Below, one piece after another: positions 12,125 through 18,018 of a stretch of 64,000 nucleotides of DNA (positions within the stretch are counted from its first letter, which is position 1; every line of letters begins with the position of its first letter). The translations under genes and the position numbers were made by a program. The notes under the pieces are model-generated. The model was not told where the DNA came from. It saw nothing but the letters and a program-made list of their open reading frames with translations, and ran no database searches. Source of the stretch: Escherichia coli (GTDB lineage: Bacteria; Pseudomonadota; Gammaproteobacteria; Enterobacterales; Enterobacteriaceae); the NCBI RefSeq assembly GCF_050320075.1, contig NZ_CP190018.1; one strand, 5' to 3'.

Positions 12125-12736
12125 CTACTTACGTTGATCATCTACCGTTACGCCTTGCGGCGGGGTGAAGGTAAATTTCGCTGCATCCACAGTCCCATTT
12201 TGCTGGGATTTCAGCTGATAACTGCTGCGCTGATCGTCCTGCTCCACCGCGCTAAACTGATGGATTGTGCCATCACGTCCCACGTTAATGGTGAACTGCT
12301 TCAGATTGCCATTGCTGGCTTTCGGCGTCAGGACAAAGTCATCGCCATTCTGTTTGATATTGTACTGCTGCCAGTCGCTGGACTGGTTGCGGGCAATCAG
12401 CATAAACGGCGTATTACCGGTGGCATCTTTCAGCCAGGTTGCCGTAGCTTGCTCAACGAACGGGTTATAGAACCACAGTGTTTTACCGTCCGAAACCAGA
12501 ATGCTTTCATCAGGTTGAGTCATATGCCAGTTGAATAAGTTTGGACGTTTCACCCACAGATCGCCCTGGCCTTCCTGCACCGCCGCGCCGCTACCGTCAG
12601 TCACTTTTTGTGTGAAGCTGGCGTGGAAGCTGCTGACTTTATCCAGGCGGCTTTTAAGATCGCTTGCGGCATCAGCCCAAACGCTGCTTGCTACTAAGCT
12701 TGAGAGTAATGCACAGGTGATGGCAATTTTTTTCAT
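12125..12736 (-). CDS. lolA: outer-membrane lipoprotein carrier protein
   Basis: ORF 12125..12739 trimmed to second ATG ([21 protein letters not shown]..., 203 aa) with signal peptide. Confidence 0.93.
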
Positions 12737-12848
12737 CATTATTCCTCAAATTACGTCACTCCCGATCGGGAGTTCCCTCTACTCTCTATTCCAGGCTAAT
12801 AATCAGCTTGAGGAAAGAAGAAAATACTGAATTTTCAGTTGTTAGAGT

Positions 12849-12894: not shown

Positions 12895-15800
12895 TTAGTC
12901 AAACGGCGGTGGGGCCAGCACTTCACGATTACCGTTGTGCCCCTGTTCGCTGACAATCCCCTGCGCTTCCATCTGTTCGATAATACGCGCTGCACGGTTA
13001 TAACCAATGCGGAACTGACGCTGTACGCCAGAAATTGATGCTTTGCGTTTTTCAGTGACAAACTGCACCGCCTGATCGAACAACGGATCCAGCTCTTCAG
13101 CGCCATCGAAACCGCCCGCGCCACCTTCGCTTTCACTGTCGGAGGTGATGCCATCAACATACTGTGGGCGACCACGCGCTTTCCAGTCCTGCACCACGGC
13201 ATGAACTTCCTGATCGCGAACAAAAGCACCATGAACACGTACCGGCAACGTGGAGTTCGGCCCAGAGTAAAGCATATCCCCCATACCCAGCAGTGATTCC
13301 GCGCCAGCCTGATCAAGAATGGTACGTGAGTCAATCTTACTGGATACGGTAAAGGCGATACGGGTCGGAATATTCGCTTTAATCAGACCAGTAATAACAT
13401 CAACCGATGGACGCTGCGTTGCCAGTACGAGGTGGATACCCGCGGCACGGGCTTTTTGCGCCAGACGTGCTATAAGCTCTTCCACTTTTTTACCTACCGT
13501 CATCATCAGGTCGGCAAATTCGTCCACCAACACCACAATGTACGGTTCTTTTTTCAGCACCGGATGCTGGGCATCCATACTGTCACCCGGCTTCCAGTAC
13601 GGGTCTGGAATCGGACGCATCATGCGATCGGCTTCAGCAATTTTTTCGTTATAACCCGCCAGATTACGCACACCTAGGGCGGACATCAGCTTATAACGAC
13701 GTTCCATTTCATTTACGCACCAGCGCAAAGCGTTGGCAGCATCTTTCATGTCGGTAACGACTTCCGTTAACAGATGCGGAATGCCTTCATAAACCGAAAG
13801 CTCCAGCATTTTCGGGTCGATCATGATGAAACGCACATCTTCTGGCTGTGCTTTATAAAGCATGCTCAGGATCATCGCGTTCACCCCGACAGACTTACCG
13901 GAACCGGTAGTCCCCGCAACCAACAAGTGCGGCATTTTCGCCAGATCGGCAACCACCGGCTCACCGGCGATATCTTTACCCAGCACCACGGTTAATGGCG
14001 ACGGATTATCGCGGAATTTGGCGTTATCCAATACTTCGCGCAGATAAACGGTTTGTCGTTTTTTATTCGGTAACTCCAGACCTACATAGGGTTTGCCAGG
14101 AATAACTTCAACGACACGCACCGCCACCGTCGAAAGTGAACGGGCAAGGTCCCGTGACAAGTTAGAAATGCGCGCCGCTTTTACGCCCGGTGCCAGGTTA
14201 AGTTCAAAGCGAGTGATAACCGGCCCCGGAGAGTAATTGACGACATCGGCTTTAATACGGAAATCAGCCAGACGCGCTTCCACCAGACGCGCCATTTGTT
14301 CAAGCGCAAAGGTATCTACCGGCTCCACTTCGCTCGGCGGCGGTGTCAGCAAATCCAGAGAAGGCAGCGGCGTCGTCGGTTTATGCAACGGACGGCTGTC
14401 ACCATTGCGCATCAACAGCGGATGAAGCAGGGTATCATGCGGCTGCGGCGCAACTGGCTGTTGCGGCTGCTGATATTGCGGCTGCTGTGCAACCGGCTGT
14501 TGCGGCTGCTGATATTGCTGCTGCGGCGCAACCGGTTGTTGTGGCTGCTGATATTGCTGCTGCGGTGCAACCGGCTGTTGCGGCTGCTGATACTGCGGCT
14601 GCGGCGCAACTGGTTGCTGCGGCTGCTGATACTGTTGCTGCGGTGCAATCGGTTGTTGCGGCTGCTGTACAGGTTCAACAATTGGCGTAAACAACGGTTC
14701 GTGTGGACCATCATCCAGCAACGCTTTCATTGGCGAAAATTCAAAATCATCCAGCGTGAACGGATTCGCCCCAGCCGGTTGTTCGCCGGAATAACGTTGT
14801 TGTTGAGTTTGCGCAAACTGACGAGCCAGTTCAGCCTCTGCCGCAGCATCTGCATCTTCTGCGTTCACGGGCACATCATGTTGATACTGTTCGCCATAGC
14901 GTTGCTGCTGTGTCTGGGCGAACTGACGTGCCAGTTCATCCTGCTGCATCGCATCGATTTCATCATCGTTATACTGATCGCCGGAATCGTACTGATTGCG
15001 CTGAGCTTCACGGGCTTTTTCTTCTGCCGCACGCTGTGAGGGCAGCTTAATACCGTAAGACGCCAGTTCACGACGAGTTGGCACGCGGATACGTTTCGGT
15101 CGTGGCAACTGCGGGCCAATCCCCTCTTTGACCTGTGGACGCGGTCCAGCGCTATTTGCCAGACTGAAGACTGGCGCGGCAACGGTTGCGGCAGCCCCCG
15201 TCGCCAGTGTCGCTTTTTTCACGCCAGATGCCAGAGGGGAAACAGCGGCAGCGGCTTCCACTGGAGGTACTGCTGCAACAGAAGGTGTTTTCAGCGAAGA
15301 TTTGATCGGTTCTGGTTCTTTAACCGGTTCAGGAATCGGTTGATACCAGGCCGCAAGTTGTTCACGTTCACGGGCACGCTTCTCTTCCACTTCTTCAAAA
15401 TAGTAAAGCGGCGGACGCGCGGGTTTTGTCTCTTCTACAACGGGTTCAGGCTCCACAACAGGCTGCTGTTCAACAGGTTGCGGCTGTTGGTACAACGGCT
15501 CCTGAGCGACTGGCTGCTGATAAGTTTGCTCAGTCTGGTATGTAGACTGTGGAGCAAAAGTGGATTGCTGCTCTTCGGCTTGCCAGGCGTTACCTGCCAC
15601 CGATTGTTCTGGCGCAGGGGCGTAATACGACTGTTGCGCAGACTGTTCCGGCGCAGTTGCGTAATACGGCTGCTGAACAGGTTGTTCCGCCGCAGGAGCG
15701 TAGTAAGGTTGTTGCACAGGTTGTTCCGCTGCTGGCGCATAATACGGCTGCTGTGGCTGTACAGGTTGTTGCAGCGGCTCATTATATTGCACTGCAGGCT

Positions 15801-16962
15801 GCGCATATTGTGGCTGCTGTGGGTAACCTTCCTGTGCAGGAGCAATAACCGGCTCTCCCGTTTGTGGCCCCGGTACAGGCTGCCAGGCTACTGTAGGTTG
15901 TGCAGGTGGAACATCAACAGAGGCAACAGGCGGCGTCTGAGTCACAGGTTCAACCGGCGCAGCCCAGCTTTGTGTCGCCGTGGTAGCAGCAGCTGCTACA
16001 GCAACAGGTTCGGTAATTGGCGCACCGTTTAATAATGGATCGTATTCGTCATATTCTGGCTGCGTTGCACGATTGCCCGAAAAGAGGACGTCGTCCGGGT
16101 CGGCAGCCACACCGCGTGCAGTGTAGGTAATCTCTTCTTCATCATCCATCCGCTTACCGGAGAACAACGCAGCATCTGTTTGCCGCCCCATCGGATTAAT
16201 GAATTTTTCCGCCAACCGTTTACGACGCGCTAACGCGCCGCGAAGAATACGGGCACGGCGTGATTCATGCTGTTTGCCGTGATTTTCATCTTCATACTCT
16301 TCGTCGTCTTCATACTCATCTTCATCGACCCAGGTATCATCGCGACGGGTACGATTACTGGCGAAGGTGAGAATGTTTAAAATCCAGCCGCCGAGTTTTT
16401 CAGCAATGGTCACCCATGACCAACCGGTGAACAGCGTCAGACCCGCAGCCCAAACGCAGAGCAGCGCAATAGTTCCCCCGCTACTGTGTAGCAGTGGTTG
16501 TAGCGTAGTGCTTAGTAAGCTGCCAATGACGCCACCGGAGGCAAAATACCAGATATCGTCAGCGTTGATTGCCGCCAGACCACAGGAGGTAAGGATGAGC
16601 GCCAAAACGCCAATGATGCGTAGCGAAACGGCAAAATAATCAATGTATTCGTCGCTGGACTGATGACGCCAGGCAAACCAACAACCGCCGACAATAATGA
16701 CGGGAATGGTGTAAGCCATCACGCCAAAAATAAAGAACAGCGTATCTGCCAGCCATGCACCGGGCATCCCACCTAAATTATGGATAGGTTCATGCCAGGC
16801 CGTTTGCGACCAGCTGGGGTCCGAAGGGTTAAAGCTTAGTAAGGCAGCCATCAACCAGACGGCAAACAGGACAATAAGGATCAGCAACGCCTCCAGAAGG
16901 CGGCGGCCGCTACTTAACTTTGTCAATGTGACTTCTTTGTCTTCAGTGTATTCCTGGCTCAA
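12895..16962 (-). CDS. ftsK: DNA translocase FtsK
   Basis: 1355-aa ORF: N-terminal membrane domain, long P/Q-rich linker, C-terminal motor (GTTGSGKS Walker A). Confidence 0.95.
14437..14668 (-). repeat. in-frame 39-bp tandem repeats in the FtsK linker (13-aa [13 protein letters not shown] units)
   Basis: About six near-identical cggctgctgatattgcggctgctgtgcaaccggctgttg units on the + strand. Confidence 0.8.
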
Positions 16963-17096: not shown

Positions 17097-17591
17097 TTAG
17101 CGCGTCTTAATAACCAGACGATTACTCTGCTTGACTTCTTCCATAACAACGTATGTCCGTGTGTCATTGACGCCAGGCAGACGCAGCAGGGTTTCCCCCA
17201 GCAACTTACGGTAAGCTGACATATCCGGCACGCGTGTTTTCAACAGGTAGTCGAAATCACCAGATACTAAATGACACTCCTGAATTTCTTCAAGTTTTTG
17301 TACAGCGGTATTGAATTGTTCAAACACATCCGGTGCGCCACGATTCAGAGTAATCTCAACGAATACCAGAAGTGATGCATCCAGATAATGGGGGTTAAGC
17401 AGCGCCGTATAGCCCTGAATAAACCCTTGTCTTTCCAGCCGACGCACACGCTCAAGGCACGGCGTTGGGGAAAGTCCCACACGTTTAGAAAGCTCGACGT
17501 TAGAAATACGCCCATCCTTTTGCAACTCATTAAGAATGTTACGATCGATACGGTCGAGATCTTTGCCAGGGCGCTTCTTGCTATCTACCAT
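17097..17591 (-). CDS. lrp: leucine-responsive regulatory protein
   Basis: ORF 17097..17645 trimmed to ATG at 17591 (MVDSKKRPGKDLDRIDRNILNELQKDGR..., 164 aa). Confidence 0.95.
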   Translation of the reverse strand: MVDSKKRPGKDLDRIDRNILNELQKDGRISNVELSKRVGLSPTPCLERVRRLERQGFIQGYTALLNPHYLDASLLVFVEITLNRGAPDVFEQFNTAVQKLEEIQECHLVSGDFDYLLKTRVPDMSAYRKLLGETLLRLPGVNDTRTYVVMEEVKQSNRLVIKTR

Positions 17592-18018
17592 TATTATTGT
17601 CTCTCTGTATTCCTTCCCTACTCCTGTCTGACCCTGAAACATCACTGTTCAGAGTCGCTACCCGTCACGATAGACCGAAATCATGAAGATTCACGGCGCG
17701 CAATGCCTGGGTCTACGGTGAGAAGACCGTTGCCTTGTGGCTGCTATCGACATCACGAATGGCGTCTGTCCACGCCATACGTAGATTTCACTAGCACGGT
17801 AAACATGGTATTTACATGCATGGTTATGCGCATATAAGAATACTGTTTTTTTTCTTCCTCGAATGTTTTCGCAAAACACCAGGGGATTGTCAAAGCAAAA
17901 CATCGATTTTTAGTACAACATGCCAGATATTCATTACTAGGGGCGTTTATTCATCATTTAATCGGCTTATAAAGCGGGAAATTTAAGTAGCAGAGGTGAT
18001 AATGACGGGAGAATTTGA

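Follow-up and report, generated by a model that had tools for sequence, protein, structure and literature searches.

Two in-frame 39-bp repeat arrays in the linker of Escherichia coli FtsK and their copy-number polymorphism

The ftsK locus and its repeats

The DNA analysed here is a stretch of 64,000 nucleotides from Escherichia coli (NZ_CP190018.1; hereafter the window), in which the gene for the DNA translocase FtsK lies on the complementary strand (Table 1). Along its whole length (residues 1-1355) the predicted product aligns with positions 1-1355 of the NCBIfam equivalog PRK10263, a profile of 1355 positions, and its score of 3042 bits, above the cutoff of 1566, makes it a member of that family. 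The Pfam models for the N-terminal membrane domain and for the alpha (residues 866-966), P-loop FtsK/SpoIIIE beta (974-1187) and gamma (1290-1350) parts of the motor each score above their cutoffs and follow one another in the order expected of FtsK. An identical 4068-nt coding sequence is annotated by RefSeq in strain CFSAN061763. The neighbouring reading frames give the lrp-ftsK-lolA context that is usual in E. coli, and the RefSeq genomes that we fetched have lolA as the annotated gene immediately downstream of ftsK. Three plus-strand open reading frames (14296-15039, 14343-14690 and 15340-16032) were set aside as probable by-products of stop-free repeats lying opposite a well-supported gene.

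Table 1. Features of the ftsK region, with positions in the window and residues of FtsK
Feature	Residues	Position	Strand	Basis
LolA-like ORF, downstream neighbour of ftsK		12125-12739	-	ORF list
ftsK CDS (DNA translocase FtsK), TTG start, 1355 aa		12895..16962	-	ORF list
C-terminal motor alpha/beta/gamma		12913..14367	-	Pfam PF17854 (1e-29), PF01580 (9e-88), PF09397 (3e-28)
CVN001 (ftsK) reverse primer GTCAGCAAATCCAGAGAAGGCA		14345..14366	+	PMC11773471 sequence, 0 mismatches
Linker FtsK-L	192-865	14368..16389	-	Gap between Pfam domains
Array 1, six 39-bp units	766-843	14434..14667	-	Tandem Repeats Finder, unit coordinates
CVN001 (ftsK) forward primer ACAACCGGCTGGGGCGAATCC		14762..14782	-	PMC11773471 sequence, 0 mismatches
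14-residue motif, two copies	676-689 and 711-724	14896-14937 and 14791-14832	-	Unit coordinates
Array 2, four 39-bp units	404-455	15598..15753	-	Tandem Repeats Finder, unit coordinates
FtsK_4TM, N-terminal four-transmembrane domain	20-191	16390..16905	-	Pfam PF13491, E = 5e-42
Lrp-like ORF, upstream neighbour of ftsK		17097-17645	-	ORF list; lrp call from reading the translation

Between the membrane domain and the motor lies the linker FtsK-L, which consists of 15.6% Gln, 13.9% Pro and 13.1% Ala, and a Pfam search found no domain within residues 192-865. Low complexity, a P/Q/A-rich composition and the lack of a folded domain are what would be predicted of a disordered, P/Q-rich tether, and the FtsK linker has been described as unstructured and P/Q-rich (PMC5357621). 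A 14-residue motif adjoins array 1 on its N-terminal side as a pair of copies; it is duplicated in every Enterobacteriaceae FtsK that we examined, with similar copies in Phytobacter, Trabulsiella, Cedecea and a MAG.

The linker contains two arrays of 39-bp units, each unit encoding 13 residues. The unit of array 1 reads QQPQQP(V/I)A(P/Q)Q(Q/P)(Q/H)(Y/D) and that of array 2 reads QQ(P/S)YYA(P/T)A(A/P)EQ(P/S)(V/A). Tandem Repeats Finder reported array 1 at 14438-14667 with a period of 39, 5.9 copies, 87% matches and a score of 334 (376 at a period of 78), and array 2 at 15604-15750/53 with a period of 39, 3.8 copies, 76% matches and a score of 161-188. Self-identity at a lag of 39 was 0.88 in array 1 and 0.77 in array 2, compared with 0.51 and 0.35 in codon-shuffled controls, none of whose 2000 shuffles reached the observed values. 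The units of both arrays are old and imperfect, with a mean nucleotide identity among units of 87% in array 1 and 76% in array 2, and pairwise identities of 72-79% among the four units of array 2.

The original prediction, made from the letters of the sequence, was that this reading frame of 1355 aa exceeds the roughly 1329 aa of the K-12 protein and that the additional length sits in two tandem repeat arrays of the linker. The first part agrees with the annotation of K-12 ftsK at 3990 nt, or 1329 aa, and the array of ~39-bp repeats proposed for 14437-14668 coincides with array 1. The second array had been given a period of ~36 bp and an end near 15770; its repeats are real and do lie in the linker, but their period is 39 and the last unit ends at 15753. 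As for the additional length, the array 1 region, taken between the anchors LFTPIVEP and TLLHPLL, is 79 aa (six units) in the window and in K-12 alike, whereas the array 2 region, between QYNEP and AGNAWQ, is 59 aa (four units) in the window and 33 aa (two units) in K-12. Therefore, all 26 extra residues are found in array 2, and array 1 contributes none of them.

Copy number across E. coli and related genera

Allele frequencies were estimated from systematic samples, 60 rows each, of 5,425 complete E. coli genomes, a collection that is clinically biased and of which the samples are no full census. For array 2, a megablast query comprising the array and its flanks matched 5,425 of 5,426 genomes. 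Of the 60 rows, 20 had a span of 421 bp (four units), 21 had 382 bp (three units), 18 had 343 bp (two units) and one had 325 bp. For over half of the genomes, alignment of a query that contained array 1 stopped within the repeats (79% coverage, two places); array 1 was measured with a query made of the flanks only, which gave clean spans and 59 usable rows. Seven units (an insert of 283 bp) were most frequent, occurring in 27 of the 59, followed by the six units (244 bp) of the window and of K-12 in 18. Minor inserts measured 322 bp in four rows, 259 bp in four, which corresponds to six units and a 15-bp QQPQY sub-unit, and 205 bp in two, and inserts of 49, 190, 298 and 439 bp were each seen once. 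Altogether, array 1 was present as 1, 5, 6, 7, 8 or 11 units and as variants with the 15-bp sub-unit, and its length differed from that in the window by -195, -54, -39, +15, +39, +54, +78 or +195 bp, every one of them a multiple of 3. The six-unit and four-unit alleles of the window are both common in E. coli, and neither is an unusual expansion.

We also read the arrays directly in 21 E. coli genomes, one of them that of K-12. The array 1 region was 14, 40, 58, 79, 84, 92, 105, 118 or 144 aa in length, and the array 2 region was 20, 33, 46 or 59 aa, a range of one to four units. The extremes were strain EC529, with a single array 1 unit and an ftsK of 3834 nt (1277 aa), and strain E70, with eleven such units and an ftsK of 4224 nt (1407 aa). 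Among the fetched genomes the annotated lengths of FtsK were 1277, 1303, 1326, 1329, 1334, 1337, 1342, 1347, 1355, 1356, 1360, 1368, 1381 and 1407 aa, and every fetched ftsK was annotated as an intact coding sequence. The same length can arise in more than one way: 1355 aa corresponds to six units in array 1 and four in array 2 in the window and in 0H24, and to seven and three in O104:H4 and AR_0118, while 1329 aa corresponds to six and two in K-12 and to seven and one in ES5. Total FtsK length is, thus, homoplastic. Within clones there is little variation; the alleles were constant in the sampled K-12 derivatives and in sampled O157:H7, and nearly constant, with rare variants, in ST131.

These data allow the remaining parts of the original prediction to be judged. 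Strain-specific linker length had been proposed, and copy number does differ, in frame, among the sampled E. coli, so that the invariance across strains which would have spoken against the proposal was not what we found. The word "expanded", on the other hand, is apt only relative to the short array 2 allele of K-12, four units being present in about a third of the sampled genomes, and to call the arrays "prone to slippage" overstates the case for units that are 76-87% identical and that barely change in number within each of the three clones named above.

To look beyond E. coli, we scanned for a degenerate DNA pattern of an 11-residue stretch of the repeat, which matched 10 species representatives and missed Salmonella; the comparison with Salmonella made below is therefore drawn from published papers. 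In the linkers of the matches, other members of Escherichia carry both arrays with differing unit numbers, array 2 having two to five units. E. albertii has four array 2 units and an array 1 that has decayed and contains a poly-alanine run; in E. whittamii the numbers are five for array 2 and four for array 1; a divergent "E. coli" representative has four and five, respectively; and two further representatives of the genus have two array 2 units and eight or nine array 1 units. At the positions of the arrays, Phytobacter and Trabulsiella have P/Q/A-rich sequence without repeats, and Cedecea has an unrelated 20-aa repeat at the position of array 2. Since four or five array 2 units occur in several relatives, a contraction to the two units of K-12 is at least as likely as an expansion in the window.

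Origin and maintenance of the length polymorphism

We consider it highly probable that the two arrays are 39-bp coding minisatellites in the P/Q-rich linker of FtsK whose length polymorphism is neutral, or nearly so, and in which a unit is occasionally gained or lost in frame by slippage or unequal recombination. The linker is reported to tether the septum-anchored N-terminal domain to the C-terminal DNA-translocase motor. The number of units would change at a low rate, when strands slip and mispair or when units recombine unequally. A frameshift would remove the motor and be selected against, which could explain why only in-frame changes are seen, and in-frame changes would be tolerated since the region is presumably a flexible tether. 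The expected outcome would be a neutral or nearly neutral polymorphism in the length of FtsK across E. coli. In Z1323HEC0300, ftsK has naturally lost 123 bp in frame, exactly between two copies of a 9-bp direct repeat, AACAACCGG, a loss of the kind that slipped mispairing leaves behind. Because the units are imperfect, at 76-87% identity, and the alleles are stable within clones, the arrays are a slowly evolving coding minisatellite and not a switch.

Several other explanations can be weighed against a nearly neutral minisatellite. Assemblies are well known to go wrong in repeat arrays, and units might have been added wrongly to the sequence of the window; nothing particular to the window favours this, however, and the chance of it is negligible. 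A region of 1601 bp of the linker is 100% identical in the independent complete genomes CFSAN061763 and E30, both arrays are likewise 100% identical in NR329, identity over the same 1601 bp is 99% or higher in 228 records, the reading frame is intact and the four-unit allele of array 2 recurs in 20 of the 60 sampled genomes. Misassembly, which the original prediction had named as a possible undoing of the feature, is thereby contradicted. It is also very unlikely that the lineage of the window has just gained units by slippage. The two array 2 units by which it exceeds K-12 could be read in this way, and the scores from Tandem Repeats Finder, higher at a period of 78 than at 39, would fit a two-unit duplication at some time, but with units only 72-79% identical to one another any such duplication in array 2 must be old. 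Furthermore, the four-unit architecture is shared by many unrelated strains, including ST131, and similar or greater numbers of array 2 units occur in E. albertii (four), E. whittamii (five) and cryptic-clade Escherichia (four). Tandem repeats within a coding region are also the usual substrate of phase variation, and changes in unit number might be imagined to toggle the C-terminal motor on and off. We regard such a contingency locus as extremely unlikely, given that a 39-bp unit and length differences that are all multiples of 3 do not shift the frame, that all fetched ftsK genes are intact, and that the units are far from the near-perfect repeats of such loci (87% and 76% identity) and the alleles are stable within clones.

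Selection on the linker itself is less easily set aside, although we still consider it improbable that unit number determines how far from the septum the motor can reach, or when it acts, and is kept by selection for that reason. Three array 2 alleles occur at nearly equal frequency, both arrays persist across species of Escherichia, and the differences between units are mainly synonymous (44 synonymous and 29 non-synonymous codon differences in array 1; 33 and 17 in array 2). This synonymous excess is a hint that the peptide sequence is under selection, in which case the repeats might do more than fill space. In addition, roles of the linker in division have been reported: large deletions in it cause filamentation, and parts of it contact FtsQ, L, I and Z (PMC5357621). 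Because of these effects, length or unit content could matter at the extremes. Against maintenance of a particular length, otherwise normal natural isolates carry anywhere from one to eleven array 1 units, the same total length is reached by different combinations of units in proteins of both 1355 aa and 1329 aa, and the array positions are non-repetitive in other genera. Moreover, when an 84-bp indel in the ftsK linker was swapped between strains of S. Enteritidis, survival in egg white, the single assay tried, was unchanged (PMC6137255). That variation in unit number is neutral is plausible, but unproven.

The feature is real but entirely ordinary: this coding minisatellite has long been known to be polymorphic, and the window has a common allele of it. 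Differences in FtsK length among E. coli genomes, from 1277 to 1407 aa in those examined here, represent normal repeat polymorphism and ought not to be taken for anomalies or misassemblies. K-12 is a poor standard for the length of FtsK because its array 2 allele is short, and, since the same length can result from different combinations of units, the two arrays are best counted separately. The natural range, which extends down to one array 1 unit, shows how large a part of the linker natural strains can do without, which is mildly useful for those who engineer or study the FtsK tether.

Correspondence with known typing loci

Length polymorphism of the ftsK linker is already known and is used in strain typing. 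Primers for a VNTR listed as "CNV001 (ftsK)" are given in a 2025 paper (PMC11773471), and both match the window (Table 1), where they would yield an amplicon of 438 bp (14345-14782) that encloses array 1. With a primer pair that flanks the array and copy number that varies by whole units, array 1 is the published MLVA locus CVN001, and no biological difference separates the two. CVN001 is one of the loci in the generic E. coli MLVA scheme of Lindstedt et al., as that scheme is cited in later papers (PMC5217547, PMC3877011, PMC3407997, PMC11773471). In Swedish data from 2017, its alleles 4, 5, 6, 7 and 8 occurred at 1, 40, 40, 13 and 5%, respectively (PMC5217547). ST131 has been scored as allele 6 (PMC5217547, among other sources), and EC958, an ST131 strain, has seven array 1 units; the allele number therefore appears to be one below the unit count, and the window probably carries CVN001 allele 5.

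Array 2 has the 39-bp unit and the in-frame polymorphism in common with CVN001. A limited search of the literature, which is no proof that the array is undescribed, found no typing scheme that names it. Array 2, with its alleles of two, three and four units at nearly equal frequency, may be a further minisatellite of ftsK that lies outside the typing schemes, and the variation of both arrays might be due to selection for the length of the tether, or for a repeated peptide motif that contacts divisome proteins, in place of neutral drift; as a whole we consider this proposal quite improbable.

The P/Q-rich linker FtsK-L of K-12 is known from the work of Bigot et al. (2004) and Dubarry et al. (2010), as summarized in PMC5357621. 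FtsK of K-12 has the same domain order and the same six array 1 units as FtsK of the window, and the two differ in array 2, as set out above, and by scattered substitutions, such as the PEQSA/QQS variants. The closest likeness in another genus is the Salmonella enterica VNTR STTR7/SENTR2, which lies in ftsK and has a 39-bp unit in 9.3 copies (PMC2430564); the same gene in Salmonella has been described as containing a "variable PQ repeat region" with an in-frame deletion of 195 bp (PMC8627665). As judged from these papers, STTR7/SENTR2 shares with array 1 the gene, the linker, the 39-bp unit and the in-frame indels among strains, and differs from it in belonging to another genus and in having more copies in the reference strain.

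Reference length and extremes of the ftsK linker

Across the E. coli genome collection, queries with the ftsK linker and its flanks left only one of 5,426 genomes without any match. The same queries also gave a few matches on plasmid-labelled records (8-16 places). The NCBIfam equivalog profile for FtsK, PRK10263, is 1355 positions long and aligns from 1 to 1355 with the FtsK encoded in the window (12895-16962), and its reference length is effectively that of the 1355-aa form rather than the 1329 aa of K-12.

At the natural extremes of array 1, the array of 39-bp repeats in the P/Q-rich linker, strain EC529 carries one unit (FtsK of 1277 aa) and strain E70 eleven (1407 aa), and ftsK is annotated as an intact gene in both. 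Strain JA0072 (NZ_CP070227.1), which is labelled 'spontaneous mutant', has only three units, which are of the CFT073/ST131 type, and an FtsK of 1303 aa.

A natural deletion upstream of array 1

In strain Z1323HEC0300 (NZ_CP148366.1), ftsK carries a natural in-frame deletion of 123 bp, at about 1859-1890 of comparison locus L013, with the 9-bp direct repeat AACAACCGG on either side. As a result, its FtsK lacks 41 aa (AGANPF...VQQPQQ) immediately upstream of array 1. The deletion also removes most of the forward-primer site of CVN001, the published MLVA typing locus that covers array 1, and typing of this strain at CVN001 would probably yield no product.

Features in and around the FtsK linker (window positions)
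Feature	Position	Strand	Remark
Region corresponding to the deletion site in Z1323HEC0300	14650-14780		
14-residue motif, copy	14791-14832	-	
14-residue motif, copy	14896-14937	-	
Long stop-free ORF	14296-15039	+	overlaps array
Long stop-free ORF	14343-14690	+	overlaps array
Long stop-free ORF	15340-16032	+	overlaps array
Long stop-free ORF	14412-14714	-	overlaps array
Long stop-free ORF	15435-15845	-	overlaps array
TTCATC x7	16285-16326	+	weak 6-bp repeat, TRF score 35

The long stop-free ORFs that overlap the arrays run in other frames than ftsK or on the strand opposite to it. Most likely they are not genes but arise as a by-product of the repeats and the codon bias in this sequence.

A duplicated motif and other linker repeats

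Just N-terminal of array 1, a 14-residue motif occurs twice. Similar copies are found in all Enterobacteriaceae FtsK proteins examined, with at least three in those of Cedecea and a related MAG. Conservation of this motif greatly exceeds that of the P/Q repeats, which makes it a possible functional element of the linker.

Repeats of other kinds are also present. Directly after the membrane domain of FtsK, the TTCATC repeat codes for an acidic stretch rich in D, E and Y. In E. albertii (comparison locus L023), array 1 is decayed and contains an 11-residue alanine run; in Cedecea sp. (L027), an unrelated repeat of about 20 aa, PEPEIRSYAPTPAPEPQWSA, occurs in three copies at the array 2 position; and in the Enterobacteriaceae MAG (L028), a QQQH repeat lies within an extra copy of the ELSRQF motif. 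The same FtsK linker has therefore acquired different low-complexity repeats independently.
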